A stretch of 64,000 bases of DNA. Origin: Tubulanus polymorphus. Its lineage: Eukaryota > Animalia > Nemertea. The translations under genes and the position numbers were made by a program. Each line of letters begins with the position of its first letter. Position 1 is the first letter of the stretch. Positions 8,623-55,408 of the stretch are shown here, one piece after another. The notes under the pieces are model-generated. The model was given only the letters and a program-made list of their open reading frames with translations, was not told where the DNA came from and searched no databases. The DNA lies in contig NC_134025.1 in NCBI RefSeq assembly GCF_964204645.1, positions 14,074,001-14,138,000 of the forward strand, given 5' to 3'.

Positions 8623-8765
8623 ATAATAATTATTCTAATAATAATTCTAATATATTTATAAAAATGAAGAAAATTATATGTTTTCACATAATGAAAATGA
8701 AAAATAGATTATATTATAACTATTTCTATACTTAGATTGATAATTTATTCATTTTTATATAATCT

Positions 8766-9535: not shown

Positions 9536-9655
9536 AAAACTAATTCATATACCCAAGTACGAGACGTACGAGTAAGAATCCAAGATTCTTACTTTCTTGG
9601 TAAGAATCTTACTTTCTTACTCGTACGTCTAGTACATAGATATATAAATCAGTTT
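9536..9655. repeat. Imperfect palindrome, copy 3 (inverse of copy 1)
   Basis: Same GTACTAGACGTACGAGTAAGAA arms and CAAGAAAGTAAGA-type core. Confidence 0.85.
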
Positions 9656-9752
9656 TTATAAAAATCATAAATATAAATTATTAATCTAAATATAGAAATA
9701 GTTATAATATAATCTATTTTTATATATTTCAGCCAATTTAACAGTCTATTGC

Positions 9753-10055
9753 TTAATTTGAATTATACAGTTTATCATCTAATTCATGAATATATTTATG
9801 ATTTCTCAAACTCTTTTTATTTTTATATCTTTTATTACAAATTTCACAACACTTAATATTATTCAATCTATCTGAAATATAATTTATATTATCTTTCAAT
9901 TCTGTATATCTAATTTTACAACTATCATAGAATTCTAACAACTGTTTTTTACTATAAATTGAAAAAGAAAATAAACCTGTAAGCATAATAATTGATTTAA
10001 TATTCTGTTGATTTTGATATATTAGATGTAATAAGTTTAATATATTTTCACTCAT
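9753..10055 (-). CDS. Small protein: hydrophobic segment + coiled coil + C2H2 finger
   Basis: Paralogue of 8103..8405 with about four amino-acid differences. Confidence 0.65.
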   Translation of the reverse strand: MSENILNLLHLIYQNQQNIKSIIMLTGLFSFSIYSKKQLLEFYDSCKIRYTELKDNINYISDRLNNIKCCEICNKRYKNKKSLRNHKYIHELDDKLYNSN

Positions 10056-10078
10056 TTTTATAGTCAAAATATATGAAA

Positions 10079-10312
10079 TTAAAAGATGCTGTTTAAATCC
10101 TCTAAATCATTTTCTAAATTAACTTTTTTATTCTTTTTATTTCTGTGATTGTTTCCATTTAACTTCTTTAATTTTTTACTCGATTTATTATTTTCATTCA
10201 TCAAATCTTTTGAAATATTTTCATAGTAAAAGTATAATGCAGCCAATATTAACCCTCCTGCTACAAGGTAATGCTTCAAATCACTTTTACCAGTTGGGAT
10301 GAAACCATCCAT
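10079..10312 (-). CDS. 77-aa single-pass membrane protein with basic coiled coil
   Basis: YLVAGGLILAALYFYY hydrophobic stretch; TTTTTTCTTAAATAAATG start context. Confidence 0.65.
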   Translation of the reverse strand: MDGFIPTGKSDLKHYLVAGGLILAALYFYYENISKDLMNENNKSSKKLKKLNGNNHRNKKNKKVNLENDLEDLNSIF

Positions 10313-10370
10313 TTATTTAAGAAAAAATTAAAAGAATGATATGTAATTTGAAATATCTTATTTTGAATAT

Positions 10371-10997
10371 CTAGAGTTGAATTATTACTTTTGAGTTATG
10401 ATATTTTGATTTAAGATGGTGTGATTTATTGCTTCGAGTATAATATTTTCCACAATTACATAAAACGCTTTCATTAGGGTTATATTTAGGCGTAACAATT
10501 TCATTATCTAAGTTACATTGAATTCCAACATCATTATAAGAATTATTATTAACTGATTCACATTGAATACCAATATTTGATGAATTTTCATTATAGATAA
10601 TTTGTTTATTATCAAAATTGAAATAATATAATTGTCTTTTTTCAATTCTTAAGTTAATCAAATCATTATAATCTTTTGAAAGTATTATATCATCATTTCT
10701 TTCATTGAAAGGAGTTTTAAGAATATTAATTATGTTTTCATCTAAAGTTCCTTTAAAATTTAAAACTGTATTGAACATTTTAGGATTTTTAACACCATTA
10801 TCAAAAGTATCAATTAGTTTAGTAATTAAATATGTTTCATTTGATAATATTAGATTAATCATAGTTATGTTATCGATTTTATAATGTCTGGCGGACACTA
10901 AATTTATTGCTGAAATATAATTTCTAATGTTAAACTGTGAAAATGATTTATTGATTTCATTGATTTCGATTTTAAAGTTGGGTTCTTCTTTCTTCAT
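10371..10997 (-). CDS. Hypothetical 208-aa protein with C-terminal zinc finger
   Basis: CNCGKYYTRSNKSHHLKSKYH; repeated (I/V)GIQC motif. Confidence 0.7.
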   Translation of the reverse strand: MKKEEPNFKIEINEINKSFSQFNIRNYISAINLVSARHYKIDNITMINLILSNETYLITKLIDTFDNGVKNPKMFNTVLNFKGTLDENIINILKTPFNERNDDIILSKDYNDLINLRIEKRQLYYFNFDNKQIIYNENSSNIGIQCESVNNNSYNDVGIQCNLDNEIVTPKYNPNESVLCNCGKYYTRSNKSHHLKSKYHNSKVIIQL

Positions 10998-11030
10998 TTT
11001 TATAACAAAATTTTAATTAAAACTCATCCA

Positions 11031-11390
11031 AATATAAATATTCAATGTTTTAAATATGAATTATTTCACTCGTTAATAACTCGTTACTTTTTATATTAAA
11101 AATCAAGAATTTAACACATATAAATATAAATATTCACTGTTTTAAATATGAATTATTTCACTCGTTAATTACTCGTTACTTTTATACTGAAAATAAGAAT
11201 TTAACGCATATAAATATAAGTATTCAATGATTTAAATATGAATTATTTCAATCACACTTTACTAACACTTTTAATGTCTAAAAATCTAACTCATACAAAT
11301 ATAAATATTGAAATATGTTTAAAATATATCTATATATCTATTCTATAAGAGCTCGTTAATTACTCGTTACTTTTTTACTAACACTTTTAT
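11031..11390 (+). repeat. Subterminal ~90-bp tandem repeat, 3-4 decaying copies
   Basis: aatataaatattca..ttttaaatatgaattatttcactcgttaat(a/t)actcgttactttt at 11031, 11123, 11213. Confidence 0.85.
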
Positions 11391-11456
11391 ATTGAATAAT
11401 CTATCAATTTATATGTTATTCATATATATTTTATTCATGTATATAAATATTTAAAG

Positions 11457-11649
11457 AGTAATAGGGGTAATGGGCTTTCAGGTTAAAGGTTGAACGGTTG
11501 AGAAATTTTCCAAATGTGAAATAATAATAATTTCTACTTGAATTAGGAGTGTACGCGACTAATTCAAGTAGAAATTATTGTTATTTTCATATTTGGAAAA
11601 TTTCTCGACCGTTCGACCTTTGGCCTGAAAGCCCATTACCCCTATTACT
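11457..11649. repeat. 193-bp terminal palindrome of the Polinton
   Basis: Arms 11457-11546 and 11559-11649, centre gtgtacgc; both ends read AGTAATAGGGGT inward. Confidence 0.92.
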
Positions 11650-12950: not shown

Positions 12951-13943
12951 ACTACCCCCTATTCCACACACAGTGGAATACCCCGGACGACAGACTCCAA
13001 ACTACACAAAAGAGGACACACAGTTCAACAAAAGTACATGGTCACAGCACGAAGCCAAGCCGTGAACCACCACAACCGCATAAGCACGTCCGACAGCGAG
13101 GAAAACGAAAGCAAAACTGATTTCTTCCGTCTGTCCGCAGCACCACGTAGTGAGAATAGTTGCGAAATTCGTGTTTTCCACAAAGATCGTGAACTGGTAC
13201 GCTCAGTTGCATAGAATCTCGTGGGCTCGTCTTTAGGACTAAACGAACAGGTGCCAGAGGAATGGGCGGTGAGGCGTTCTTTGTACGGGACAAACTCGTT
13301 ATCCGCGAAAACTGTGACCGCGTGCCGATGGACAGCCCTAGAACCAGCGCGGAGGTATTATGCGTACAATTCGTAGACCGGACTGTTCTCGTATCTCGAA
13401 GTCGTTATGTTATCGAATTTGTAAATAGTGTAAATTAATGTGACAGTAGTCCAAATGTGAAAATGTAAATAGAAATATCGTTGGCTCGCATGTATATCAT
13501 AGGGCAGATACGGTTGTAGGTAAAAATCCCCAAATATTCAAAGTAGGTAAAAATCTCCACTTGTTGATTTTCAAGAAATTTCAAAGCAAGATGGTATAAA
13601 TAATAACTTTCATACGTCGGCCTACCTGATGTAACTCCAAATATTGTCACCTCTGATTTAAATGAGCAAAATGTTGTCACTTTTGATTTGAATAAGCAAA
13701 ATGTAACCAGTACAGCAAACGCAGCAACCATAAGTGAAACGCCTTGTATCAAATGATCATTTAAAAGTTTTCTACTAGTTTTCTGCAGTACTCAGAATGT
13801 ATGTGGATGTAATCTATATTACCCCAGAAAATAGTCGTTATTATTCAGAAATAGGTATCAGAGGGAGGAATTGAAATAGAGTTAAATGAAGAAATCCCAC
13901 ACTTCGAATTTGAAATTATACAATCAAATTTATTATTACGAAA

Positions 13944-13985
13944 CCACAACGTTTCGGCTGTTGACTAACAGCCATCATCAGGTGG
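13944..13985 (-). ncRNA. Minimal hammerhead ribozyme in the inverted pLTR
   Basis: Reverse complement of the 17183-17224 motif. Confidence 0.7.
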
Positions 13986-14319
13986 AATGACCAGAAAAAC
14001 AAGTTACAAAGCATATAAACTCACAGGATCTAAAATAAAAGCAGTGTGTCAAAACTAAAGATAAACAGACCAAGCAATAAAACATCAAGGGGTACCGTGG
14101 AAACCACAGCAATTCTAAACAGTTCAGAGTAAAAACAAATTAAGTGACTAAGAACAGATTTTTGGTATGGCTATGGGGAATTCACTTTCCCCTGTTCTTG
14201 CAGGTTTATTTTTGGAACATGTCGAAAGTGAAATTCTTCCTCTTTACACTGAAAGTAGACCCAAAATTTGGCGACGTTACGTTGATGATATTCTTTGTTT
14301 AGTTTCCCCCGATTTTAAT

Positions 14320-16077
14320 AAACCATTTTACAGTTGCTAGCCGCCATTTTGTTAGGGTACTTTTGTCCCGTATTGTTGGGTCATTTTTTTCTATTTTTTA
14401 AAAACTGTCCGTGATGCGTGTTGTATCATATTTCATCTGTCCATGGATGGATTTTGACAACTTCAGCAACATTCAAACTGCGTGAATCTCTAGTTTTCAG
14501 TTATGTAAAAATAATTTCTCAAATTTACAACAATGCGACATGAGAGCGATATAAAAATCGGTGGTCAGTTTTTGCCGTGCGCATAGAAATCAAGGGTACT
14601 GAACTTTGAAGTTCGTTATTTTCAGAAATAATTTTCTAAAAAATCCTAGCATTTCAAGCACTGTGCGCATAAATGCCCCCTTTCAGGTGAACTTTGAAAT
14701 TTTAAGATATCTTGCCTAGTTTTTTTTCTATGGCACTTTAACTACAGCGCGTGTATTGTCATTCCGAGATTCGGCGCTGTTTTCTTTGCGTGTATTTCAG
14801 TATATGGGTGTTATTTTTTCACTTTTACTACACTTGTCTCTACGGAAAATGGTTTTAATTGTTGGTACGAGTATCAGGTTTTAATATTACGTCATTTATG
14901 CAATATAATAGATCGAAGACATTAGAGATGTTGGAGTTAAAGGGATTTTTTTACCAGTTTTAGCAGCGAGACTGAACGGCATTTTGATCACGTATTCGAA
15001 GTTGCGCGCGGGAAGAGAATATATGGGCCTATATTGAGATGGAAGAAGAAAAGAAATATAACACACAAAATCGAGTATGATGACCATTTAAATCAGTAGT
15101 CTATCAATAAATTTACATAAAAATCTACTGAAATTAGATGGATGGAGAAGTGGTCAAAAAGCTGGACAAATGGGTTGGGGCAAATATTCAGCTACTTTCT
15201 ATGAATACTTTCTATTAAGTACACACAAGATTGATTAGATTGGGAAGAAAATATAGGAAAACGTTTTCTTGCTTTGGTGGTGACATATCAAGTATCAAGC
15301 CCTAATGTAAGACACCGGTGATAAAAAGTAAAAAGTGACATCTACCATCACAAAAACGCAAGAAGTGTGTGGATTGCATTTACAACAAAAGAGTGATATT
15401 TTGGGTTTTCTTGGGTGCATGTACGTAAGCCTCTGCCTGCTGTAAAAGCGGCTACCAATACAGCCATTACGAACTAGCGCCGGAGAACGGAATACAGTAT
15501 TAATGCCGTAATATTAAAACCTGATACTCGTACCAACAATTGAAACCATTTTCCGTAGAGACAAGTGTAGTAAAAATGAAAAAATAACGCCCATATACTG
15601 AAATACACGCAAAGAAAACAGCGCCGAATCTCGGAATGACAATACACGCGCTGCAGTTAAAGTGCCAAAGGAAAAAAACTAGGCAAGATATCTTAAAATT
15701 TCAAAGTTCACCTGAAAGGGGGCATTTATGCGCACAGTTCTTGAAATGCTAGGATTTTTTAGAAAATTATTTCTGAAAATAACGAACTTCAAAGTTCAGT
15801 ACCCTTGATTTCTATGCGCACGGCAAAAACTGACCACCGATTTTTATATTGCTCTCATGTCGCATTGTTGTAAATTTGAGAAATGATTTTTACATAACTG
15901 ATACTAGAGATTCACGCGGTTTGAATGTTGCTGAAGTTGTCAAAATCCATCCATGGACAGATGAAATATGATACAACACGCATCACGGATAGTTTTTAAA
16001 AAAGAGAAAAAAATGACCCAACAATACGGGACAAAAGTACCCTAACAAAATGGCGGCTAGCAACTGTAAAATGGTTT
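14320..16077. mobile_element. Non-autonomous DNA transposon with ~570-bp TIRs (PIF/ISL2EU-like, AT target)
   Basis: TIRs 14320-14891 and 15507-16077, flanked by AT. Excision restores the PLE RT frame (SPDFN-LNGFL). Confidence 0.85.
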
Positions 16078-16967
16078 ATTTGAATGGATTCTTACATTAT
16101 TTGAACTCTTTATATCCTACTTTGAATTTCACTTTTGAGTGGGAAGAAAATAATTGCATCCCGTTTCTCGATGTACTCATTCATAATTTCAAAACAAATT
16201 TGAAATTCTCTGTATATAGAAAACCGACTAACGCTGAAGCTTATCTTCATTTTTTCTCATTTACTCCTTTGAACATCAAAATTGGAATAGCCCAAGGATT
16301 ATTTCTTCGAGCTCTACGTATTTGTGATCAAATGTGTTTAGATAAAGAAATCAAACATATAAGAACTGCTCTCAAGAAACTAGCCTATCCAGACAAAATT
16401 TTGAACAAAGCTTATTTCAAAGCCCGAATTTCTCACTTTGGACATAACGACCTGACCAAAAAACGCAGAGCTCAAAAGAATATTATAATCCCGTATTTAC
16501 CTACTTTGGAACGCTTTAAATCCACATTAAGCACCATCGACACTAGATTAGTCTTTCAGTATAATAACAAACTCACTAATGTTTTAACCAAAAATAAACC
16601 CAACAGTGAGCTAATTGAGTCTGGGGTCCATAAGATACCATGTAAAAATAAAGACTGTAATATGATGTACATCGGCGAAACGGGACGTAATCTCAGTCAG
16701 CGTATTAAAGAACACAAAATAGATATCCGCAACCAAAAGCCTGAGAGTGGAATAGCGAATCGTGTCTTTACAACCAATCACCAATTTGACTTTCAGAATT
16801 CGAAACTTATTTATCCTTGTAAAGATATTCATAAGAGACACATAGTGGAATCAGCCCTTATATGTAAACTTTCGAAATCCAATTTATCTACTAATTTAAA
16901 TACTGGTTTTTCTCCACATAACCAATTATTATCCAGACACATCAACTCTTTATTAGATTTGGGTTGA
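16078..16967 (+). pseudogene. Penelope RT thumb + GIY-YIG endonuclease (3' part of the interrupted ORF)
   Basis: IPFLDV, VYRKPT, GVHKIPC..C..YIGETGR..RIKEH..VESALI..LN. Confidence 0.9.
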
Positions 16968-17182
16968 TGTCACTATGTGTCACTCTGTTATCGCCACCCT
17001 CTTCAGTCCACTTCACTTAGTTACATAATTTGTTTTTACTCTGAACTGTTTAGAATTGCTGTGGTTACCACGGTACCCCTTGATGTTTTATTGCTTGGTC
17101 TGTTTATCTTTAGTTTTGACACACTGCTTTTATTTTAGATCCTGTGAGTTCATATGCTTTGTAACTTGTTTTTCTGGTCATT

Positions 17183-17224
17183 CCACCTGATGATGGCTGT
17201 TAGTCAACAGCCGAAACGTTGTGG
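17183..17224 (+). ncRNA. Minimal type I hammerhead ribozyme in the pLTR
   Basis: ccac CUGAUGA u ggcuguu-aguc-aacagcc GAAA cguu gugg. Confidence 0.75.
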
Positions 17225-17289
17225 TTTCGTAATAATAAATTTGATTTTCAAATTCGAAGTGTGGGATTTCTTCATTTATCTACAGTTTA

Positions 17290-19750: not shown

Positions 19751-20129
19751 TCCGTGGCGATCTAGTCGTGGTGTTTATTTTATACAAATTTTCAATCTTT
19801 TAGTAAGCTGCCTTTGTGCTCTGTAGTGTCTGCTTATCTTGTGTAGTGTCTGCTCAACTTGTGTTCATACCTTATTGTTTGCTTATGTTGCTTACGTGCT
19901 TTAAACTATGCTTGATTTATACCATACTTTAGGTGACGGAGTAGGGTAGTATTTTGTTTGCTTTGCTTTGTGTTCTTAGTTGCATATTTTCTATGATTCA
20001 CCAAGTGGGTGGATTTCTCTTGTGTATATTCTTATTTTCTTGTACACACGGGTGGTGTGGTCAGGTGTTTTATTTTGTGCAAACTGTTGAGTTGAGCACC
20101 TGGTGTGATTCAAAGTCAGTTACTCATCA

Positions 20130-22796
20130 TTGAAATTATTATATGAGCTTGATGATGGTGGTGGTGTCTGTTTGTATATAAAGAATAACATTCAATATAA
20201 AATCCTTACTGATTTATGTGTTTGTAATAATGTATATGAATCTTTATTCATTGAAATTAAGAATGTAGTTGTAGGCGTTGTATACAGGACGGGTCCTGAT
20301 ATCAACTCTTTTAACCAATCATTTATTGATAAACTTGAATCCTGGCCTTTGATTAGTAATCGTAAATTTTATATACTGGGTGACTTCAATATAAACCTCC
20401 TTGACTATAACGAAGACGCCCGAGTACAACATTTCTTTGATTCTATGTGCTCCTTATCATTTCTACCGCTAAATGATAAACCCACTCGAATAACTGAAAA
20501 CTCTCAGTCAGTCATAGATAATATTTTCACAAATGACATACCATTGAGTAAACATGTACCGGGTTTACTCACCTTTGACATTTCAGATCATTTGCCTGTT
20601 TTCGTATTTTCTGATATTACTACCTGTCAACCCACTAGAGACTCTTTTTTCAGGCGCCATTATCCTAAAAAATCTATTTTATTATTTTGTGATGCGCTTT
20701 CAAAAACTGACTGGGATCCAGTGCTTGGTGACCCTAATCCTGAGTCTTCATATACCGTGTTTTTATCTATGTACAAAGAATTATTCGATCATTTCTTTCC
20801 CCTCAAATTGTGTGAACAACCCTCGGCTCGAAATAAGGAAAATAACCATAAGTGGCTAACTCCAGGGCTTCTTATATCGATTAAACGTAAGAATTCCCTC
20901 TATAAAAAGTATTTGAAATCTCGTAACTCTGACGATAAATCTGAGTATACTATATATAATAATAAGCTTAAACACTTACTCAGATTCGCAAAGCGTTCGT
21001 ATTACGCTTCTTGCATTGATTTTTCTAAATCCAAGGTAAAGGATACATGGAACGTCATTAAAAAGACCTTAGCCTTGAAGGGCCCTCCAAAATTACCATC
21101 TGCCTTATTAGACTCCTCTGGTACTGTTATAAATAATTGTAAAGCTATTGCTAATCTATTTAATGATTATTTTAGTACTATAGGCTCCTCTATTGCTAGC
21201 GATGTACCGCAACCAGAACCCAATAGGGAAACACATGTAACTAACATATCTGATAATTTCTTTATGTTTCCGGTTACTGAAATAGAAATTCATGACATTG
21301 TTTCACAGTTTATAGGCAAAACTTCATCTGGATGGGATGAAATCCCTATGTTTATTTTTAAACAGTCTATCGAGCATATTTGCAAACCGTTAATGCATGT
21401 AATTAACAATTCATTTGTTACTGGTATTGTCCCATCGGGTATCAAAATGGCTAGGGTAGTCCCTGTTTATAAATCCGGTGTTATAAATAATGTGTCCAAT
21501 TACCGCCCCATTTCACTTTTACCAGCATTTTCAAAACTTTTTGAAAAAGCTGTTAGCAACAGGTTATCTTCTTTTATTGATAAACACAACATTCTCTCTT
21601 GTAACCAATTCGGTTTTCGAAAAGGTCTCTCCACGTCACATGCTTTAATCGCATTTACTAATTACATCACTGAGAATCTAGATAATGGAAAATTTACTGT
21701 TAGTATCATGCTTGATTTAAAAAAAGCATTTGACACTATTGATCATTCTATATTATTAGACAAGTTGTATAGTTACGGAATTCGAGGGGTTGCTCATTCA
21801 TGGTTCAAATCCTACCTCACTAACCGCTTACAGCAAGTGTCGTTCAAGAACTATTTATCTGATGTCAGTCCCATTCCTATAGGGGTACCTCAGGGTTCCA
21901 TCTTAGGGCCCTTGCTATTCATTTTGTTTGTTAATGACATCGTTTATTCTTGTAATTTAAACTTTTTACTATTTGCTGACGATACTACTGCCATTAACTC
22001 TCATTCCGATCTGAATATACTGCAATCAAATACTAATGTTGAGCTCACTAAACTGTTTAACTGGCTAAACTCCAATAGGCTATCTGCTAATCTGTTGAAA
22101 ACGAATTATATGCTTTTCCATAAAAAGATCAATATTCTTGATGATATCGACCTTGTAATGGGTAATGTTTCAATAACTAGAAACAGAGAAACAAAATTCC
22201 TTGGTGTAATAATTGATGACAGCCTAACATGGAACTCCCACATAAACAAGCTGTGCTCTATTGTTAGCAGAAATATTGGTGTATTAAGAAAAGCACGACG
22301 TATTTTTCCTAGATCCGCGCTCATCAAGTTATTCAACGGTTTCATCCTTCCGTATCTACAGTACTGTAATATCGTCTGGGCATCTAATTATGTAACTAGG
22401 TTACGACCCCTTATTTTGCTTCAAAAACGCGCTATTCGCATTGCTAGTGGGGTAAATTTTCTAGAACACACTACTCCACTGTTCAAAAAGTCGTATCAAC
22501 TCAAACTTCAAGACATCAATGTGTTCCAAAATTCTGTACTGATGTATAAATCTGTCCATGTGTTGCTGCCTGTCAAATTGTCCAATAGTTTAATTCGTAT
22601 TTCTGATCTTCATTCCCACAACACCCGTAACTCTAATCAATTTCGTTTACCTTATTACAGAACCAATATCAGGATGTTTTCTCCTAACATTAATTGTATT
22701 AGAGTCTGGAATTCTCTTCCAACTGAACTTCAGCAAGCATCCAACATCGATATATTCAAGCGGAATTTGAAAAGACATATAATAGGATTGTATTAA
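20130..22796 (+). CDS. CR1/L2-group LINE ORF2 (APE endonuclease + RT), 5'-truncated but open
   Basis: GGGVCLY, GDFNI, IDNIF, SDHLP, NYRPISLL, QFGFR, DLKKAFD, GVPQGSILGP, FADD; AATAAA + (TTA)n tail at 23000-23032. Confidence 0.92.
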   Translation: MKLLYELDDGGGVCLYIKNNIQYKILTDLCVCNNVYESLFIEIKNVVVGVVYRTGPDINSFNQSFIDKLESWPLISNRKFYILGDFNINLLDYNEDARVQHFFDSMCSLSFLPLNDKPTRITENSQSVIDNIFTNDIPLSKHVPGLLTFDISDHLPVFVFSDITTCQPTRDSFFRRHYPKKSILLFCDALSKTDWDPVLGDPNPESSYTVFLSMYKELFDHFFPLKLCEQPSARNKENNHKWLTPGLLISIKRKNSLYKKYLKSRNSDDKSEYTIYNNKLKHLLRFAKRSYYASCIDFSKSKVKDTWNVIKKTLALKGPPKLPSALLDSSGTVINNCKAIANLFNDYFSTIGSSIASDVPQPEPNRETHVTNISDNFFMFPVTEIEIHDIVSQFIGKTSSGWDEIPMFIFKQSIEHICKPLMHVINNSFVTGIVPSGIKMARVVPVYKSGVINNVSNYRPISLLPAFSKLFEKAVSNRLSSFIDKHNILSCNQFGFRKGLSTSHALIAFTNYITENLDNGKFTVSIMLDLKKAFDTIDHSILLDKLYSYGIRGVAHSWFKSYLTNRLQQVSFKNYLSDVSPIPIGVPQGSILGPLLFILFVNDIVYSCNLNFLLFADDTTAINSHSDLNILQSNTNVELTKLFNWLNSNRLSANLLKTNYMLFHKKINILDDIDLVMGNVSITRNRETKFLGVIIDDSLTWNSHINKLCSIVSRNIGVLRKARRIFPRSALIKLFNGFILPYLQYCNIVWASNYVTRLRPLILLQKRAIRIASGVNFLEHTTPLFKKSYQLKLQDINVFQNSVLMYKSVHVLLPVKLSNSLIRISDLHSHNTRNSNQFRLPYYRTNIRMFSPNINCIRVWNSLPTELQQASNIDIFKRNLKRHIIGLY

Positions 22797-28600: not shown

Positions 28601-30183
28601 ATGTTGGTTAAATCGAATGGATACTGAAGTCTATTTGTAATATGATCAACGAGAAATCGGGTTCTGTCAGTGAAATAGTTTGGTGTGTCCTCTGCATTTT
28701 ACAATAAGTGCTTGAGTAAAACACATTCAATGTAACATACCTAAAAAGAAAAGGATACTTTAATATCATGGAACATGGGGGAAAGAGAAAGTTATTGAGC
28801 AGTAATGCACCCGAATCATAAATCCCGTGCATGACAAACCTTTAGGATAATCATAGATATTCTTAATCAGGTTCAATAACTTTTTAATAGCATATACTTA
28901 CTTTCTATAGGAATCAGGTAGAAATAATTTCCAAGACTTTTGATCATTTAGAAAAATCGGTTACAATAAAGTAATCAATTGGGCCATCCACTACATTGTC
29001 ATGATTATAAGAAAATTGGGCCCGCAGGGCCGTTAGAGGCTGGGCAACTGAGTCGGTTTCACGCGAGCGTAACAGTAAACACGAAGTTTTTTTAGAAAGA
29101 TATGTTGAATAAAGATATGTCAATATCTATATATACATATAGTAACTTGTTGTTTTGTCAAGAGATGCATTTGTTAGTCGTGTTTGTAAAGTAATTAGTC
29201 AAATATTCTTTCTGTCTTTGTTTATGGCATGTTGTTGCTCAAATTGTCTACTCAGTGTCTGTCACCTTTGTTTTTCATACCTAAGTTTTTGTTACTATGC
29301 AGGAATATATAAATATATGTAAGAGTCAGTTGGGATAGAATAAGAGACACGACACACACTTTTAGTGGGCAGTTTGTACTGAGCAGTTGTTGCGGTCGGA
29401 AGCCGACCAAGCATATGAAAATATTTTATCAAGATGGAATTGATGACTTTGGATTTATTTTGACGAGCTAGTTCCCGAGTGCACTGAGAATGCTAGTTGT
29501 TACAATTGGTGGAGAACCCGGGCAAATTGTCCGATGATAGTTAGTTCACCGATCGACGTTGTTTTCAACTTAGACTGGGATAATGAGCATTTGTCTGTGG
29601 ATATTTTACAACCGGAGCGACTAGACACATCAAAGCTACTTCGTGAGTTACCCAGTTTTTAGCGCGATTGAGCTGGATCTCAATTTCGAAGAAATCCCAA
29701 ATCATGTTACTGATCAGTGCATCTTAGTAGATATTGTGTATTCTGCCGAGGAATCCGCAGCCGATATTTCTATTCTCGATGCGAAAATTCAAAATTTGTG
29801 TTCCGTTTGCGATCGATTAAAAAGACATAACTTTTCGGAATAAAAGGAATGGTGTCGTGATTGATTTGATGCTCATTAATTTTTTGGATACGATCGCGAC
29901 CACCTCTAAAGCGATATTGAGATGGCAAATGTGCCAGTAGATTAGTCAATATTTCAATGTCAAATGCCTTGTTTCACATGTATTGTGAAATACCACGTAC
30001 CCCTGTGTCTGTTTTTGTTTTCATATTATATATACCTTAGATCTCTTAAGCAATTTGAGCACTTATGTCTAGTATTGTGGTTTTTGTTGATTGTGTAATT
30101 GTTTTTATGTTCATCGTGTAATTTGTCATATATTATGTAGAACATGTTTTCTAGATAAGATGAGATTCCGAGTAATAAGTTCT

Positions 30184-30560
30184 AAATGATTTTGTAACGT
30201 TGTTGGGCTTTATAGTCAACAAGTATTGTTACGTTCGAGATACGGTTTTTTAAAATGATTTTGTAACGTTGTTGGGCTTTATAGTCAACAAGTATTGTTA
30301 CGTTCGAGATACGTTTTTTTAATGATTCTGTAACGTTGTTGGGCCTTATAGTCAACAAGTATTGTTACGTTCGAGATACGTTTCTCTATGATTCTGTAAC
30401 GTTGTTGGGCTTTATAGTCAACAAGTATTGCTACGTTCGAGATACGGTTTTTTAAATGATTTTGTTACGTTGTTGGGCTTTATAGTCAGCAAGTATTGTT
30501 ACGTTCGAGATATGGTAATTTTTTAAATTTTTAACGTTGTTGCGCTTGGTCAACAAGTAT
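30184..30560 (+). repeat. ~69-bp minisatellite, ~5.5 copies
   Basis: aatgattttgtaacgttgttgggctttatagtcaacaagtattgttacgttcgagatacggttttt. Confidence 0.93.
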
Positions 30561-30697: not shown

Positions 30698-32764
30698 CGA
30701 GCTATAGACTAAAAACAGGGGTATATATACAGAGGAGAACAGGTTAAATTAGTAAATTGGTGAGTGAGTAAGGAATTAATGTTTGGCAAGGCATGAAGTA
30801 ATATACTATTTAGCTAAATATATAATATACTAATTAACCTGTTCTCCTATGTATACGTATATACCCTCTGTATACATACCCCCGCTCACACACGGCGTTA
30901 AAACACAAATTTCGTATCCATGTTTTCGAAGCTTCTCTTTTCGATTTGATGCATATCAGAGCTCTTACTATATCATTTTACCCACAATTACCCAGAAAAT
31001 GCCTTCAAACCATGTTTGAACTGCCCTATTGTGAAAAAGAATCAGAGGTTGAGGCAATATATCAATGAATATCCAAAGCTGGATGTCGACTGCTATAGTA
31101 AAGAGAGCTATTTGGATTTTGAGTAGTTTATTTAAAATTTATAATCATATTACCTTATGTTAATTATAATGATATCGTCATGAAAGTTTTTCATTGTATC
31201 ATTTCATCAGTTTAGTTCATAAATATGGAAATGAAAAATGACACTAAAAAAATTACAAAATTTATTTGAATACATACATTTTATCAAGCCAGAAACGTTA
31301 AGAAAAAAGATATTCACCGAAATCAGGTGGTGTTACATACACGTAGTTTATTGTAAAAAAAAACTCTCAAAAAACCAGGGAAAACAGATATCTGCCCTCA
31401 CTAGCGTTGTCTTTTCATCTCTGCGTGGTGAAATATTATCAAATCAAATTACGGGTACGTTAATCCAAATTGATTCTGTCGAAAATTCCTAAATCATAAA
31501 AAAACAGATATACGCACAAACGTCATAGTCTTAGCAATGAATGTAGTTTTCTTCAAATTGTTTTGCCCTACTGAAAATGTATTTACCTCAAATACTTTAT
31601 TGGCAAAAACTCTCGAATCCCTAAGAAAATCGGATGTACGACCGAATGATGTATCTAACGTGAGAAATGCTGTTTGTTTCCTACAAAATCTCAGCGCGTG
31701 GCGAAATTATGGATATCATGTACATACAATTGTACAAAGAATACTCGTTTCAAATGATACTGTTATTTACTGGATATCCCTGGTAATGTCGTGAAATTGA
31801 TAACCGTAGTTGGAATTAAGCATTGCAGCAAGACCCTAAACATTTACATAAACTGAAAACATCTTAACCCTTTCAATTTGCATGAACAGCGTCTAGATCC
31901 ACATTTACCCTCATCTTTCACACAACCACAACCTTTCAATTCAATGATTTTTTCAACATCAGCCTTATCTTCAACGAAGCTTGGGACAAGATTTAATCCC
32001 TCTTTCATTCATCCAGATTCTGAGGGTAAGGGTATTGGTGGCGATGGAATATGTGATTACTTCCAAATATAGCACTGGTAATTGGCCAGTAATAGGGGTT
32101 TAGTTGGTTCAGGCCAAAGGTCGAACGGTCGAGCTCAAATTCTATCAGTGATAAGGGTAATTCTAAATTATGTAAATTATGTGGGATGGATAGAGATATT
32201 TCATATAGAGTAAAAAATAGGATAATGAGTAAAAATACACGTTTAAATCAAAAAAATAAATACCGTAAAATATCAAATGATATAATATATGAAAAAAGAA
32301 ATATGGATGACAAAATCTTAGATTAATATTAGGTGTAGATGTTGTAACATTATCTTCTATTTTAGTTTTAATGTTATCTTCTATTTTACTTACTTTATAT
32401 TTAAATTGATTAAAGTATTATCCAAAATATTTACTATATTCAGAATTAGGTAATACATAATATATATCTGATGTAATTTCACCTTCCATTGTTAGGTAGA
32501 TTTATTTTTTCTTTATATTATCTTTTCATTATAGAAATAATATGATATATCATTTATTATATAAAAGATAAGATGAATAATTATTTTATAAACCAATCAC
32601 ATTTTTTCTCTATCACTATTCATCCTTAGTTTATTTATAAAAATATATTTATTTATTATATCTATTTTTCATCAATAATAAGAATAATTATTGATATTAA
32701 TATTTATTCTCATAATAATAATTATATTTATCTTCAGTTTATTTATAAAAATATACAATAAATG

Positions 32765-33617
32765 TTTTATAATAATTTCTCTTCTAATACATTTATAAAA
32801 TCTTCTTTATTTATATCCATATTCTTAGTATGTGGTACATTTATTAATCTTATTTCATCTTCCAATTCATCTTCATAATAACTTAATCCAGCTTTCCTTC
32901 TTAATTTTTCAAAGTAATTATTAGGTATAAAACCAGTAAACATAAATCCAAAATAACTTCTTCAAAAAGTGAACTCTTTATTTTTATCATATGCATATTT
33001 ATATATTTGTCCAGGGTTATCTTCTGCATAAGCTATAAATTTATTAAATAATAACTTAAAGAATATATAATGTTGTTCACTTTCAAAATTAAAAATATTG
33101 GAGACATTTCTTTGGATAATATAATATTGATATCATCCCAAACTTTTTATAAACATTAATTAAATGTGATTTTGATTCATAATGGGTATATCTATCAACA
33201 GGATCAATATCTTTACTACAAGATTAACATGTTAATTGTAATACATTATTAATATGACACATAGATATTTCATGTATAGACAGATTCTTTGTTAAAAGTT
33301 AAGGAATCTAAATTACATACGTTACAATATATCCTAAAATTATCAATTATTTCATCACCGTTTATATCGTTAGTTTTAATTGGGATATAATTATTTGATT
33401 TAATACTATATGTAGAGGGTTTATCATAAGATTTAGATGCTATTATATCTTCTATTTTAGTTTCAATATTATTTTTTATATAATTTATTTTACATTTATA
33501 TTTATTATAATACTTTCCAAAATGTTTACTATATTCATTATAAGGTAGGATATAATATAGGTTTCTATCTGATTTTATTTTACTAGATGCTTCTATTTTA
33601 TATATCCCACCTTCCAT
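32765..33617 (-). pseudogene. Zinc-finger protein pseudogene (partial second copy of its 5' end at ~32311-32489)
   Basis: ORF 33270..33617 continues in another frame: CNVC..HEISMCH, then C*SCSKDIDPVDRYTHYESKSH; the MEG..YY(I/V)LP..EYSK(H/Y)FG start and ~50 bp of upstream DNA are duplicated. Confidence 0.6.
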
Positions 33618-33782
33618 TGTTAGGTAGATATATTTTTTCTTTATATTATCTTTTCATTATAGAAATATAGAAACTCACTACTTTAGTTAACCCTCACTAC
33701 TTTAGTTAATAAGAGCGGAGCTTATTTAAGTCCTAGGTTAGTCATTTCGGATACTCGTTTCTATATTTTACCCTTTTACTTT

Positions 33783-34183
33783 TTAAAGGGTAAAATCATT
33801 ACTTATTAAATGTTGAGTATCATATAATTTAACATCTAGCTGTTTACCTTTTACTCTGTTTTCTCTTATTTGTAATGGTCTAATATTTATCCAATTAAAT
33901 ATTGAATATAAATCAGATTTATATTTTATTTCTGAAATTGGTATTACATGATCAAATTCCCAATATGTTCCATAATTATCAAATTCCATATCCTTGTCAA
34001 ATTGATAATTGATCCATTTAAAAAAAAAATACCATAACAATTTAAATATAATATAAGTTCATCCATATTTCTTTTTTCATATATTATATCATTTAATATT
34101 TTACGGTGTTTATTTTTTTGATTTAAACGTGTATTTTTACTCATTATCCTATTTTTTACTCTATATGAAATATCTCTATCCAT
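33783..34183 (-). pseudogene. HNH-type endonuclease, frameshifted in a T-run (~34020-34029)
   Basis: YLNC..FF/KWINYQFDKDMEFDNYGTYWEFDHVIP..FNWINIRPL..ENRVKG; start codon lies inside the right TIR. Confidence 0.72.
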
Positions 34184-37100
34184 CCCACATAATTGACATA
34201 ATTTTGAATTACCCTTATCACTGATAAAATTTGAGCTCGACCGTTCGACCTTTGGCCTGAACCAACTAAACCCCTATTACTTTGGCCCTCATGATATGAT
34301 TTTTTAATGTGCTTGCTGTTGGTGGTATATGATTTATTTTTGCTCTCGACCTGAACTTCTGTAGCCGAATAATGCTGATGGAATTTGTGTCTGTATTTTC
34401 ATCGTAGAGGTTGGAAATGAAATTCTCTACCAGTATTGTTGACTCGGTTGGTGTTTCGTTCTCTCCAAGATTTTTCAAAAGATGGGAATGCTTCGTGAAA
34501 ACCATCCACGCTGCTCGTTTAGAAATTCCTACTAGTTGGCTGGTGGTATCACATCCGGTCACAGCATGTGGCTGCTTTAAATTATTAACTCTCTGAATCG
34601 GGATAAACTGACGTTTTCTAATAGTTTGCATTGATAGATCTGGTAAAGTGTTGCGATCGGCTATCAACAGAAGAAAAACACCAGTGTCAGGACTCTTCAC
34701 TACTATTCGCTGGTAACCTCAATTTGCAGCATGGATGGAATGGAGTACAATACGAGTGTTTGCCTCCTCATGGGTCGACTGTAAACAATCATAAGTCCCC
34801 GGTTTATTAGCTAAGACGTTGTTCCTGTCGTGTCCTGATATCACAATTGTTTTGTCACCTTCGTATCAAGCTGTTCGTATCAAGCTATGTGCTAAGAACA
34901 TAGACAGCAATTCCTTGTTTTCATTATGTGACATAAAATTCTTCCATTCACTAGCAGTCGGTAGCTTCATTTCTTTTTTTCAAATATGCTTTTGTGATTT
35001 TCGTATATCAAGTGCATTTTGATAAGGCAAGTGGGACAGGTTTGATCCGACTCCCGTAGACTATCAAGTGATTCAGACACTAAAATTTGCATTATCTGTG
35101 CCTTGTTTGCTGGTATAATGTTGCCTTCATGAGTTGATACAGATGGGGGAAATTTGGTGAATTCGTATTGTAGAACGTCTTTAATATCTACGCGACCATC
35201 AAGCAAGTGACATCTTTCTCAATATTTCACAAGAGTCGACTGGAATGTTCTTCTTTGTTCCTTGACTTTTCGTTTTACTTTCTACATATACAATTGTCTT
35301 CAAGTGAAATTTCTTTATTGCATCGTGGAAGTTTTCAGGGTGATGTAGTAATCTATTGTTGAATGAGCTTGCCAAGACTGTACCCATTTTCTTTGCACCT
35401 AATTGATCAACTTTGGTTTCTCTGCAGCAACATCGCCATAAAGGTTTACTAGCTGTTCTCTCTCATCGAATATTCCACTCTTGATTAATTCATTTCTAAT
35501 CTTTTAGACATCCTCTCTTTCTTTCAACACTCGCAGCGGCCCATTTTCCTTATGACTAGATATACACTGACTAGAAATTCCCAATATTTTCTTGGTCTGA
35601 TTTGCTAAGTGCCCACCGTTATTGTATGATAGACACCATCGATTCAACGCGGCAGTATTTTGAGTGATTCCAACTAAGCCACCAGCAACCTTCCCTATTT
35701 TGTTCACATGATCAAGTGCTCGATCATCAGGTAAACTGTTAAAATGATGTTGGTTTGTTTCTCTCGCGACAAACTTCTTTTAAGAAAAGCCTCGTAGACA
35801 GGCAATGCCGAAACTTCAACTGCTTCGTATCATTGACGAAAACAGAAGCCCAACGAGAATAATTTTGATGGTCGAAAATGTGAAACTATGGGAGCATTTC
35901 TTTGAGAGTATTGAGATACAGAAACCAACACCCATCACTTTAGCAAAATTTAGCTGAATATGGAATCCTCCCATCATAATGATGACATCTTTGAGTGTTT
36001 CCGGGTTATTCCATTGCAGCTTCATCAAATGTTATGTGTGTTGCTGGTCTAGATGCTTGGATACAGCCATGCAGTTGTTTATTACTGTCCATATGGAGTC
36101 ATTCTCATGTTCCGGGTTGTTCAGAATTGGGTGGTGACTGATTGTTGCAAACATTTTATCATGGTTGTCTTTTTCCTTCAGCAGTACTTCATTAAAACCA
36201 CCCCAACCAAAAACTGTCCTGCACAAAACGTCGAAACTAGGAAAACGATTTTAGCAAGAATATCAACTTGACTAGTAGGCCTAGCAAACAGCCAATACTC
36301 GATTACCCCAAGAAGCTTCAAAAGGGGGTTTCTTTAAAGGCAAATAATATTTAATTCCAAGTTAACTCTAACACACAACTGTTGAACCGGGCCGTTTAAG
36401 GTACACCTCTCTTCGAATCAGCTATATTCAGGACTGGGTGTTCAAAATCATATGTCAATTTTGCAAATATATAGTTAATATTAAGACATACGTTTAGAAG
36501 AAAGAAGATCCTTGCTTTTACCGGAGGCTTACCACTATTTCATATTAACAAAAATATCGCAAAAATTGAAGTACTTAACTCTATCGCTTAACATGAGTAG
36601 GTGTGGTTAACACAGCAACTTGTGGAAAATGATGAATATCAAGATCAGTTCGTAACTTTTGTCCGTTTTAATTGTTAAATTTAACCGTAGTAACGAAATT
36701 GATGTTGCATTACTACAGTCAACATCTGGACAAGCTGGACAGCTTGATGAAATGTATATATTCAAATAAATTTTGTATTTTTTTTAGTTTCATTTTTCAT
36801 TTCCATCTAAATGATGAAACTAAACTGATGAAATGATACAACGAAAAACTTTCATAACGATATCATTATAATTAACATAATATGATTATATATGTTAAAT
36901 AAACTATTCAAAATCCAAATAGCTCTCTTTACTATAGCAGTCGACATCCAGCTTTAGATATTCATTGATATATTGCCTCAACCACTGCTTCATTTTCACA
37001 ATAGGGCAGTTCAAACATGGTTTGAAGGCATTTTCTGGGTAAAATGATATAGTAAGAGCTCTGATATGTATCAAATCGAAAAGAGAAGCTTCGAAAACAT

Positions 37101-40100
37101 GGGAATTGATACGAAATTTGAATTTAACGCCGTGTGTGAGCTGGGAAATGAATAATTATGATCCAAATAGCACAGTTATGTATTTCTGTTACTGTACGTT
37201 GTCATGGAAATGATACGTTCCATTGTTGTCAACTACGCATATTTTTAAAGGTGGGTTCTTCATGCATTGAAAATTGATATTTCACGAGCCCTAGTTTTGC
37301 ATGCAAGAAATATTCAATACGGAAGAACCGAGAAAAAAAACCTATTTTGAGGAAATAGCGTTTCATCATCCCAATTCCTTCATTATATCAACGAATCTTG
37401 CCGAGATATTTCCAGATATCAACCTTTAATATGCAATGTTCCCTAATAAAAAGTACATGAGCATGATCCCAATGAATTTCTGAAAATACGTTATAATTTG
37501 AAAATGTGTATTTTTAACAAAAATTCCCCTATAGTGACCACTCGGGGGCGCTGGCTATCAGGTACCGAGATTGTCAGGTTGGCAACAATGGTTTTTGAAG
37601 AGCCCAGATACTCTAACAAGAGAAAGTAAGCGTTGCCAAAAATTAACATGAAGTGTTAAGTCAAACGGGTTTGGCTCCCTGACTAATAACTAAATGAACA
37701 TTATTTTTTTAATAACTTAGATCAAGAGTGACTCTCCCGTTTATTAGGAAACACACGCAACTAGTGGAATAGGTTTAATATTCAAACACATGTTGCAAGT
37801 ATAAATTGTTTATCAGTATAGAATTTGTAATCCATAAAAGACAAAATCAACATCAGCTGGAAACCCAGACCAAATCAATTCATTATTCATTGATTCATAT
37901 CTGTAAATTTACTCGATCTATCGAATCAGCAGGTGCTTAAGATGAGTTCTTAATAGGACAGATCCATTTTTTAAGCGTGGTGATAATACAGTATCATGAT
38001 GTTTGAATGCCAAAATAAATGCCTGGTCGAATAAATTCATATATCTGTTGATTGTACCTATGTTCGGTTTCAAAGCTGGACCACATTTGGCGTTTACACA
38101 GTGGTTGAATATTAGGTTCTGTCAATGCATTTTATTCTATGTATCGGTATTTCAATTTACTACAATTCCCATCAACCTGAATGGCTTTGCAGAAAACCCG
38201 TCATCGCTGCTTTGCAGCTATATTTCTTACATTATTTTATTCATTTCATCAACTCACAGCGACAAGATAATACATTCGTGTCTGCTATGTATGTATATTA
38301 CGTTTGTATACACGCAGTCAGCATTCAGTGATAATAACAGCACTCCCATACATTGGCGGCGCGAGCGCGTGTTAGCCTCGTACATCAGACATACTAATCG
38401 GCAAAATTTAATGAAATCCATGTCAGAATTAAAGAAAACTGCCTTCTCGAAAGCGATTTCCGTATATAAGCGACTAAACTTGTCGAACTGATCACTTCAA
38501 CACTGTGACTAGTAGCAACCAATCATGGCGTGGTTCCCCATAATTAGGCCAAAAGCGCTGGCATTCCCAAAAACAACCAATCAGAGCGTGGGCTTTCCGT
38601 AATCATGTCAGCGCGCTCGACAAAGCGGTGCCGTGCCGTCAATATGTGCCATAGTGTAGCTATAACCATTCAAAGAATCCTGTCAATTTTTTAAATTCAC
38701 TACGTGAACCGACCACAAACACTATCAATCTGAAATTCTCGACACAATATGTATATTCATACGTATATTTATTCATGATTAGTTGATAATTTAATTCATT
38801 ATGAGATACATCATATGATTCATAAAATAACCTCAACTGATAATCCATAAAATCTTCAAAGAAATACCACCATATAACATTATTTCATGTCTCAATCCAC
38901 AACATATTTGTACACTTCAATACATGGTTCTTGAAATTCACAAAAAAATATCTTTTTTCCAGTAAAATTACCTAAACCCAATGCTATTCAGCTTCGAAAT
39001 ACAACCATTTCTTAAACACTGATTATAGCAGTGTTGTTACTAAAAGGATCCACAGAACCAGGGTTTTCATGACTTCATAGCTGACTAGCAACTCATTGTA
39101 TCATCCGTTTTTTGCGTGTAACTCTGCCATGTTATTATGTAGATATTACAACATCTGCTGTGAGTACATATACATAGGTATAGTATGCTAAGCAGCTAAA
39201 TTTAAATTAGTTCATACAACTGCCACGAGGGAATGGTAAAACACAGTATCACCTATATTCTCGAAGTTATTTTCCTAAACTTGGTAGATTACTTCTTTGC
39301 ACTTAGTAGCCATGGGTCAACATATCCATGATATGGGTTGACCCATGATACAAGCTGACCCCTATGCGGCGCTCCTTCACAAAATGCGGTACTCCGGTAC
39401 GTAATGACTGATTTCAGTGAAATCTTTTGCAACCAATACGACATTTAACCCAGCAAGGCAGAAACCCGTTATCGCTGCATTGCAGCTATATTGTATTTGA
39501 TCTTTTTTCAAAGAATTATTTCTTAGTCAAATAAGGCCAAAAATATACCTTAGTTTTATATACCTTTGTTTATGAAATAAGGCCAAAAGTATACCTTCGT
39601 TTTACCCACCAACAGAGGATGGCTGAATATTGAAAGACTTGGCAACCTCTTCAAATGTAGCTACAGAAGCTAACATACCATAAAAAACAGCTGTGGATTA
39701 TCTTAAACCTCAGATTTTACCACTAAGATAAAAACTGGGCGGGCGGAATGTTGAAATGTTTTCTTGTCTTTTTCCATTATATTGGGGTTGAGCTTACCAG
39801 TATTAGAGGTCACGAGTTTGCTTACTAAGTTCATATGTTATCTCACGGCTGGTGAGCCGTGACACGAAAACAATCAATGTGTGTTGGATTAATATGTTTG
39901 ACAAAATATTACCCCGCTAAATGTGGTGTTGTGGTGTATAAAATTGGACACAGGCACCCAAGATCTGTCTGCCTTGGTCCTTCGTGTCAATCAGTCAGGA
40001 TATTTAAGGCATGTTAAAAACTATAAGACATTTTGACAATGTTTTCATTCAGTGTTTTCATTCAGTGAGAGTACATGTAGTAATGATTCCTCGGTTCTGG

Positions 40101-52885: not shown

Positions 52886-54194
52886 ACCCCAGTGAAGTTC
52901 ATTACATGTTCCTTATTCTGCTACTTATTCAGAATTCATCTCCCAATAAGGAACAAGTAACTTCTTACTTGTTACTTATTCGGATTTTCTTGTTGGTTAC
53001 TTATTGAGAATTCATCTCCCAATAAGGAACAAGTAACATGTTACTTGTTCCTTATTCAGATTTTCTTGTTACTTATTGAGAATTCATCTCCCAATAAGGA
53101 ACAAGTAACATGTTACTTGTTCCTTATTCAGATTTTCGTCTTTACCGGTTCAATTTTCGTTACTTATTGAGAATTCATCTCCCAATAAGGAACAAGTAAC
53201 TTGTTACTTGTTACTTACTCAGATTTTCTTGTTACTTATTGAGAATTCATCTCCCAATAAGGAACAAGTAAGGAACAAGATTTTCTCGCTGTTACTTATT
53301 CGCCAGGTGGCGCTGGTATACACTATTCCGTAGTCCAGACATTTTACATAACCACGTCTACTGTGCTGAAAAACAAACTCGACCTCGACCTTGACCTTGA
53401 CAACAAATCGCCAGGTGATGGCGCGAGCCAATCCAGACATCTAAACACGATTGCGTTACCACGTGTGCCGACCGCGAGAGCGGTCAACTGTAGCTACGTC
53501 AGTAAGTTGCGTCTATTAATAACTTGGTTTAAGAACGTGTGTATTGCTCGGTCGTTTTTCTCGTCACCGAATCGACAAGTTACTTGTTCCTTATTGGGAG
53601 ATGAATTCTCAATAAGTAACGAAAATTGAACCGGTAAAGACGAAAATCTGAATAAGGAACAAGGAACAAGTAACATGTTACTTGTTCCTTATTGGGAGAT
53701 GAACCAACAAGAAAATCTGAATAAGGAACAAGTAACAAGTTACTTGTACCTTATTGGGAGATGAATTCTCAATAAGTAACAAGAAAATCTGAATAAGGAA
53801 CAAGTAACATGTTACTTGTTCCTTATTGGGAGATGAATTCTCAATAAGTAACGGAAATTGAACCGGTAAAGACGAAAATCTGAATAAGGAACAAGTAACA
53901 TGTTACTTGTTCCTTATTGGGAGATGAACCAACAAGAAAATCTGAATAAGGAACAAGTAACAAGTTACTTGTACCTTATTGGGAGATGAATTCTCAATAA
54001 GTAACGAAAATTGAACCGGTAAAGATGAAAATCTGAACAAGGAACAAGTAACATGTTACTTGTTCCTTATTGGGAGATGAACCAACAAGAAAATCTGAAT
54101 AAGGAACAAGTAACATGTTACTTGTTCCTTATTGGGAGATGAATTCTGAATAAGTAACGGAATAAGGAACAAGTAATGAACTTCACTGGGGGGT
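52886..54194. mobile_element. Foldback-type element with modular tandem-repeat TIRs and a 9-bp TSD
   Basis: ACCCCAGTGAAGTTCATTAC...GTAATGAACTTCACTGGGGGGT; TSD AAATACTCA at 52877-52885 and 54195-54203. Confidence 0.85.
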
Positions 54195-55408
54195 AAATAC
54201 TCAGTCTTGTGAGCCAAAACATAATGCCAGACACAGCAAACCTCCCACCCCCTTACTTTCTCAACGGATCTAGACAATTTGGAAAGCTTGTTTTTTAAAA
54301 TTTATCATCACAAAAAAGCGGGAAATTCTCATCCCTGGTAAATGTTTGTCAAAATATGAAATACAAATACAACAGTGCCCATTCTGAAATCCGATATCAT
54401 ATTAATGCCATGTAATTTTAACTGAGATAAGATGGGTACATTGGTATAAGGGACACCAATCCATGCATCATGTTGGATGAGGCCAAGACACAATGCTTTC
54501 AATTATTACAATGGGTTTGAGTACAGTTTACTTTGAGCACTAAAATGGATTGGTTGTGGGGTTTGCAACCTGTGATCAGTTTGAAAGGCATTCTGCTGTT
54601 CGTGTTAGGAGATCAACTGACTCGTTTTTCAAGTTTTTCAGTGTGCGGACCTAAGTTTTGGAATCCCCTACCATTTGATGTAAAAAACTCTTTTCACATT
54701 GGATACATTTAAATCATCACTTAAGACATGGCTCTTCCATAAACACATCATGGAGAAACAAGCGTTTTGAGCTCTTGTATGGAAAAGCACTTGCTATTAT
54801 CATTATCATAATGTATAAAGATGGTGCACAACACCACTGTAGTAAGCAGGTTCAACTATGATGATATACATGGTAATAGGTTTTTTCCCTTTGACCCACT
54901 AGCTAATTGTAGAAGAATCAATACAAGGTTAATTCTATATACATTGGATGCTGAAGGGCTTTACCAGAGATGTCATTATCAAGAAACAAAGTCAAGCAAA
55001 GAACAATTCATTGAAGTTTCGCTTATTTTCCCTCAGTGCTTTTAAATGGCTAATACTAATTGATGAAACTTTCTATATTAATACCAACACCTATTTCTTT
55101 CTGAATGGCAAAATATCAGCTGTCTATATCCAGTGGTTACATTTGTGCCACCACCAGCTAACAGAAAGTTAGTCTCAGAACCATTCTATAAGGAAAAAGC
55201 AGGAATGTCCCCGAAGATAACTGATGCCGCAACATCAGGTGAAACATGTGAGTGAAATATACACCCAGTCAACCTGTCGTTTAGATAGTTATTGTTTCTT
55301 GAACCTGCATCGTGGGTGTTCACGCAGTTACCCACAGTCTCTAGGATAGCTCATCCTTCGAATTTCACCTAGTTATCTTAAACCATTTATGAGTAAGAGA
55401 CCGGAAAT

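Follow-up and report, generated by a model that had tools for sequence, protein, structure and literature searches.

The sequence examined here is a 64,000-nucleotide window from the nemertean Tubulanus polymorphus (contig NC_134025.1, positions 14,074,001 to 14,138,000; coordinates below are those of the window). At 32088-34281 lies a mini-Polinton element of 2194 bp that begins with AGT and ends with ACT. Its 223-bp terminal inverted repeats (TIRs) are identical at 218 positions and differ at five, which places the arms 2.2% apart. A target-site duplication (TSD), TTGGCC, flanks the element; the match is exact over 6 bp and fails at 7 bp, and the chance of such a 6-mer match, from local composition, is 1.2e-4. 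Polinton TIRs are ~100-1500 bp long with AG..CT ends, and published Polinton TSDs are 6 bp (5-8 bp) in length; the arms, ends and TSD of the element all agree with this. Arms, ends and duplication are as given in a preliminary description of the locus, which had also called a 6-bp TSD typical of Polintons.

The element interrupts a decayed DNA transposon whose inverted arms (30871-31289 and 36742-37154) are identical at 381 of 403 positions. Once the element and one TSD copy are removed the minus-strand frame of this host closes, as had been claimed, and reads ...NHIMRANYQCYIWK. The host transposon is older than the element, as the nesting requires. Academ elements are recognized by an Academ transposase, TAG termini and a 3-4-bp TSD. 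By its protein motifs the host is Academ-like, an assignment unconfirmed by Pfam and by a word-based search (0 of 309); its outer ends have decayed and no TSD was seen there.

All four frames of the element lie on the minus strand and read inward from the right end (Table 1). The longest stop-free frame has 127 codons and none of six frames matched Pfam, in agreement with the earlier statement that the element encodes no integrase, polymerase or capsid. Unlike an autonomous Polinton of 13-25 kb, the 2.2-kb element has no protein-primed DNA polymerase (pPolB), retroviral-type integrase, ATPase, protease or capsid gene. The evidence supports a non-autonomous element whose ends are genuinely those of a Polinton and whose 6-bp TSD is of Polinton type. 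It cannot move itself, and since ends and TSD are both of Polinton type, a Polinton integrase likely made the insertion.

Table 1. Coordinates of the mini-Polinton element, its insertion site and the related end of the window Polinton
Feature	Position	Strand	Description
Terminal palindrome, window Polinton right end	11457..11649	.	193 bp; end signal on both arms, no TSD around it
Host DNA transposon, decayed	30871..37154	-	~400-bp inverted arms; interrupted by the element
Left TSD copy	32082..32087	.	TTGGCC, 6 bp
Polinton end signal	32088..32137	+	50 bp: conserved tip, variable 8-bp block, conserved 26-bp box
Left TIR	32088..32310	+	223 bp; the 5' third of the HNH frame recurs inverted at bp 51-223
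ORF2b	32311..32489	-	ORF2a paralogue; one in-frame stop
ORF3	32767..33223	-	Orphan; one in-frame stop near 32963; 5' part probably frameshifted
ORF2a	33270..33617	-	115 amino acids, unbroken, orphan; leader shared with ORF2b
HNH/endonuclease-VII-like gene	33783..34273	-	Frame open from element end; first ATG 99 bp in
Right TIR	34059..34281	-	223 bp
Right TSD copy	34282..34287	.	TTGGCC, 6 bp

The first 46 bp of the element match an end (11604-11649) of a larger element at 1-11649, which we take to be a Polinton from its PolB motifs, its end structure and its 497 PolB-like relatives. The match holds at 39 of 46 positions with all seven mismatches inside the 8-bp block, so that the preliminary description was right about the resemblance; what it called the Polinton end is one arm of the 193-bp terminal palindrome. 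The end-signal pattern occurs four times in the window (0.04 expected), twice in the element and twice in that palindrome, and had no match in viral contigs or in metagenome contigs.

A search with a PolB segment from the window yielded 497 relatives in 589 metagenome stretches, and the best 80 were used together with three viral loci. Among these the closest PolB relatives are stretches L005 (88%) and L006 (73%). The same two rank highest of 84 loci for the 46-bp signal, with 34 and 30 matching positions out of 46 (next 27, median 24). In both, the signal is collinear and stands at the boundary between flank and element; in L005 it marks the switch from a 40%-GC flank to 21%-GC element DNA, ~200 bp before PolB. 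This placement argues that the 46-bp signal of the element is a true Polinton terminus. Across ends the 8-bp block varies between a conserved tip and a conserved 26-bp box.

Past the signal the likeness ends. As first reported, the TIR beyond the shared end is unrelated to the window Polinton: no convincing similarity was found beyond bp 46-50. Against window 1-11456, five of six parts of the element scored no higher than the maximum of 15 shuffles, and ORF3 reached a local score of 57 against a shuffle maximum of 55 (n = 15).

The gene nearest the right end is HNH-like. Its frame matches phrog_1035 (E 0.0011), has weak matches to 36 phage records, among them annotated HNH and endonuclease VII genes, and scored 0.94 to an HNH cluster in the Atlas; the frame had no Pfam match, and a word-based homolog search gave 0 of 6 candidates. 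The motifs W-x-x-D-H-x-x-P and N-x-x-P-L-x-x-x-E-N are invariant in all three aligned HNH sequences. A frameshift at an A-run near 34020-34029 breaks the gene. Because the first third of the frame lies inside the right arm, the left arm holds an inverted copy of it. In L006 an HNH gene stands directly after PolB, 69.8% identical to that of the element over 225 bp (E 4e-18) and 39% identical in protein over 96 amino acids (aa). The giant-virus protein of locus L001 shares 53% over 59 aa; its gene (L001 1428-2177) is upstream of a major-capsid-like gene, among repeated segments of ~416 bp that resemble pieces of group I introns. An HNH gene was found in only one of 83 PolB-selected loci, which suggests that it is a patchy passenger of Polinton-class elements.

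ORF2a and ORF2b share a leader within a direct repeat (32351-32539 and 33446-33667, 74%), and the insertions and deletions between them keep the frame. Their similarity stops near 32350, and ORF2b meets the left arm after ~59 codons. ORF2a had no match among 1.84 billion representatives, in viral contigs (0 of 10 stretches) or in the Atlas, and its single-sequence structure model has a mean predicted score in the local distance difference test (pLDDT) of 40. A resemblance of its N-terminus to GIY-YIG is unsupported by these searches. For ORF3 the word-based search gave 0 of 4 candidates and viral contigs 0 of 5 stretches. Three of the four genes are broken. The longest open frame by itself is weak evidence of coding, as 109 codons were reached in 6 of 200 shuffles.

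The composition of the cargo is that of a Polinton. GC content is 22.1% in the element, 22.6% in the window Polinton and 36% in the host transposon; GC at third codon positions (GC3) is 0.10-0.13 in the element genes and 0.12-0.15 in three Polinton open reading frames (ORFs), compared with 0.43 in the host transposon and 0.33 in a long interspersed nuclear element (LINE). The cargo had been described as unrelated. We read it instead as Polinton-type DNA, though unrelated to the window Polinton copy, because of the HNH relative beside PolB in L006 and the matching codon composition.

Copy number was judged from assembled contigs of three runs (X1, X2 and X3, representing at most two samples of one study), of which X1 is the deepest. 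In X1 three contigs (259, 966 and 451 bp) carry the element interior without any differing letters at a depth of 30-36, and the flanks have 36-39. Arm positions 53-223 have a depth of 48, as expected of two slightly different arms at one locus. Positions 1-50 reach a summed depth of 9,000-45,000, greater by a factor of hundreds, a figure inflated by overlapping short contigs. Of the element, only this 50-bp end signal is common to many other ends: contigs in low agreement before 32088 number six in X1, four in X2 and two in X3, so that the signal stands beside many different flanks. Sequence after bp 50 was encountered at its own locus only, and neither arm positions 51-223 nor the HNH part was on any other contig at an identity of at least 85-88%. 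The element appears to be single copy. A contig covering 31896-32125 spans the left junction in X2 and in X3; therefore the second sample carries the same insertion.

Other parts of the element do have relatives in these runs. Relatives of parts of ORF2 and ORF3 at 85-95% have summed depths of hundreds to thousands, with none for the HNH part; those of ORF2b are ~85% identical with a summed depth in the thousands, and diverged relatives of ORF3 sum to 250-3850. At 32817 and 33663 some contigs depart from the element and continue with other sequence.

The preliminary description had proposed a non-autonomous parasite, mobilized in trans and forming a helper/satellite pair with the Polinton of the window. 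The non-autonomous part stands, with Polinton ends; a multi-copy satellite does not agree with an interior and arm positions 51-223 at single-locus depth. Several copies of the same short element at different sites, the mark of a satellite, were not found among the X1 contigs. Nor are the two elements of the window a natural pair. The many end variants among contigs diverge from the element at bp 46 (the type of the window Polinton) or at bp 49-50, where AT-rich DNA follows. Other ends in these runs have 49-50 bp in common with the element, while the window Polinton has 46 and a different 8-bp block; the subfamily of the closest ends is not that of the neighbouring Polinton. With an end signal so abundant and so many mobile elements nested in the window, proximity was not counted as evidence that the Polinton 20 kb away is a helper. 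The 8-bp block was considered as a mark of satellites and dropped, since further block variants exist among the ends.

Membership of a non-autonomous satellite family, with the 50-bp end retained, cassettes of its own and repeated mobilization in trans, nevertheless has some claim, and we consider it unlikely. The perfect ends and TSD, the abundance of the end signal beside many different flanks, and the deep ORF2 and ORF3 relatives, with contigs leaving the element at 33663 and 32817 as swapped cassettes would, all fit such a family. There is a precedent for mobility in polB-less Polintons, and a zebrafish family, Polinton-1N1_DR, is named in the manner of a non-autonomous one, as "N1" signifies in Repbase usage. 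The former stayed mobile in the butterfly Pieris mannii, in the available part of that report (10.1101/2025.02.07.637071), and the latter is listed in the accessible portion of its source (PMC9341505); the Anolis study, as far as its available text goes, noted an apparent absence of non-autonomous Polinton copies there. Against membership of such a family, no second copy of the architecture appears, the X1 contigs being long, unbroken and at flank-level depth; ordinary Polintons and their fragments explain the abundant ends and modules equally well; three of four genes are broken; and another end type is closer than that of the neighbouring Polinton. In a wider form the idea is just as improbable: short fold-back Polinton satellites would be a low-copy modular class for which the 50-bp end is the whole cis signal, with HNH, ORF2 and ORF3 as swapped cassettes. 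Equally doubtful is the corollary that resident Polintons would replicate, integrate and perhaps package them, which would explain part of the hundreds-fold excess of end signals in this genome. If true, these would be defective-interfering genomes of an animal germ-line DNA virus turned heritable. Low-copy diverged siblings of the element may have escaped the contig data.

A shortened, defective Polinton is a likelier identity for the element than a spreading satellite, and it was probably pasted in by the integrase of a relative. To the specific reading of a defective genome that arose from one Polinton end through copy-back and underwent a single integration in trans, we assign about an even chance. 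Copy-back or panhandle defective genomes are known from linear viruses; they are short and helper-dependent, and both their ends come from one parental end. The element resembles them in that both ends apparently derive from one parental end, in its shortness and in its dependence on a helper; it differs as a chromosomal fossil in which the template switch is presumed.

The route would have four steps. A Polinton lineage would have gained an HNH gene directly behind the 50-bp end signal, where elsewhere non-coding A-rich DNA stands; the junction of signal and HNH is observed, its origin conjectural. During protein-primed replication outside the chromosome, the polymerase would then have copied ~2 kb from the HNH-bearing end and, after a template switch, copied back the first 223 bp, leaving the 5' third of the HNH frame in both arms and ORF2b cut. 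A retroviral-type integrase of a co-resident relative would next have recognized the end signals and made the 6-bp TSD; the TSD is in the sequence, and known Polinton biology suggests the source of the enzyme. Finally the copy would have decayed in place, as the 2.2% between the arms, the frameshifts and the stops suggest, with no detectable amplification.

Several observations fit this route. At bp 50/51 both arms have a junction that is absent from other ends; the copying of one end onto the other therefore postdates this junction. The left arm holds a gene fragment and cuts ORF2b, where ORF2a runs to its full length, and all genes are read from one end. The first in-frame ATG is 99 bp from the end of the element, as against ~200 bp in L005, ~380 bp in L006 and ~650 bp in the window Polinton. 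Fold-back products also recur in the clade: the 193-bp palindrome, a 257-bp terminal palindrome in L006 (190-446; none was seen in L005), a 1.08-kb inverted duplication in the window Polinton and a ~48-bp hairpin contig. The two in-frame stops (0.93 expected, P(>=2) = 0.24) are compatible with decay after insertion on either view of the origin.

The other view is that a full-length Polinton with HNH-containing arms integrated itself and then lost more than 10 kb in one internal deletion, so that the 2.2-kb form never moved. This is a real possibility to which we give somewhat less than even credence. The preliminary description had proposed that a lone copy aligning with both ends of a full-length Polinton subfamily would mean just such a deletion. 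The element does look single-copy; a deletion after insertion is not proven, because no longer element with the same arm past bp 50 was seen. A deletion would also have had to place its left breakpoint within the left arm or exactly at its edge, leaving no recognizable left-end genes, and the four frames are all read from the right end inward. That no other contig carries arm positions 51-223 or the HNH part, in spite of a fairly young insertion, speaks weakly in the same direction. In favour of a deletion, one-off integration of an otherwise absent lineage would explain the unseen parent as well, and single-locus depth agrees with it.

A number of points weigh against copy-back. A single deletion in a copy whose gene-containing arms were at least 223 bp long yields the same anatomy, which thus suits copy-back before insertion and deletion after insertion alike. 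Butterfly Polintons have long coding arms, according to the available text (10.1101/2025.02.07.637071); 96% of vertebrate Mavericks are degraded in the part of the survey at hand (PMC8097293), and the accessible passages on C. elegans report remnants. No parent sequence was seen, hence there is no junction that could be checked for template switching. The rarity of the HNH gene among PolB-selected loci, many of them short, counts here too, as does its being equally near the giant-virus and the L006 protein; ORF2 and ORF3 are tied by sequence to no Polinton (0 of 84 loci). As to copy number, X1 is possibly the source sample, summed contig depth is not copy number, and contigs show presence better than absence.

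Expansion of a terminal hairpin is a further and very improbable origin: a palindromic end bounded by AGT..ACT would have moved in the manner of a miniature inverted-repeat transposable element (MITE) and captured 2 kb of Polinton genes into its loop. The 193-bp and 257-bp palindromes do each hold two complete end signals in the facing arrangement of a transposon, and in one X3 contig 18 bp from one end and 19 bp from the other stand 11 letters apart (32105-34263), an end-to-end hairpin of ~48 bp with the block type of the element. However, the element arms share only 46-50 bp with the hairpin arms before running into coding DNA, and no TSD surrounds either palindrome, so free movement of hairpin units is not supported.

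In the 193-bp palindrome each of the six arm-to-arm substitutions would pair as G-T on the plus strand, and contigs of the second sample again show its inner-arm variant. [quoted passage not shown]

Short and polymerase-less Polinton derivatives are already known, and the element is ordinary in kind. With non-autonomous and defective Polintons it shares Polinton termini, arms within the range of 46-1447 bp, a 6-bp TSD and the lack of its own replication and integration genes; it differs from known derivatives in being only 2.2 kb, apparently at one locus, with no remnant of a core gene and with arms that are mostly the 5' part of an HNH frame. With autonomous Polintons (window 1-11649, L005, L006) it shares the 46-bp signal, 22% GC, a GC3 of ~0.12 and, in L006, the HNH gene; besides their core genes it lacks the A-rich non-coding stretch or terminal palindrome that they have behind the end signal.

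The suggested analogy with transpovirons did not survive comparison. Those elements are ~7 kb long, encode a superfamily 1 (SF1) helicase fused to an inactivated domain derived from pPolB, and reach high copy in giant-virus particles, according to the available text (PMC5499653). The element is likewise small and linear in type, with inverted ends and no capsid genes; it has no long ORF, no match to an SF1 helicase or pPolB domain and hence no helicase-polymerase gene, and the assembled contigs of the three runs give no sign of a free high-copy form. The same source, in the part at hand, describes HNH insertion elements in Tlr1 and Polinton-like viruses (PMC5499653), and HNH genes are patchy in Halocafeteria elements as far as the accessible account goes. 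There too the HNH gene is a patchy passenger; here it stands directly behind the end signal and partly within the arms. No study of a short HNH-bearing Polinton derivative was found in the literature searched, Repbase and most subscription journals lying outside its scope.

The window Polinton has several features of its own. Its PolB frame (2503-7566, minus strand) is open over 1687 aa, and its catalytic YxDTD motif is interrupted by an intein that has a LAGLIDADG domain; Pfam gave intein, LAGLIDADG and zinc-finger matches only. In L005 and L006 the YxDTD motif is uninterrupted, and no animal Polinton PolB intein surfaced in the literature search. PDB sequence searches with this PolB and the putative minor capsid protein gave nothing useful. 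The inverted duplication (7683-8777 and 9390-10471; 1055 of 1081 aligned bases identical) copies a zinc-finger ORF, the tail of the ORF at 10371-11012 and a block of short palindromic repeats, and is apparently another fold-back product. Tandem repeats of ~90 bp lie between the last ORF and the terminal palindrome (11021-11417); short motifs in the element at 33670-33710 are loosely like them, at a level not above shuffles.

Elsewhere in the window, nested inverted repeats with arms of 239, 183 and 410 bp occupy 13914-17254 and enclose an ORF (16017-16967) with a weak GIY-YIG match. An 895-aa endonuclease/reverse-transcriptase ORF lies at 20109-22796, a second reverse-transcriptase fragment at 61810-62547, a tandem array of 67-69-bp units just left of the host transposon (30178-30545) and a complex cluster of fold-back repeats at 52887-54236.

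A lone shortened Polinton is in itself ordinary, since most Maverick copies are defective and short derivatives have been catalogued. The Polinton life cycle rests mostly on sequence inference, and the value of the element is as a clue to mechanism. If the copy-back origin is true, the element would record in fossil form both extrachromosomal Polinton replication and integration in trans, and the cis signal that priming and integration require would narrow to ~50 bp, including a variable 8-bp block. Terminal palindromes, seen in two pPolB-bearing relatives, argue in the same direction and may prove the more fruitful lead.

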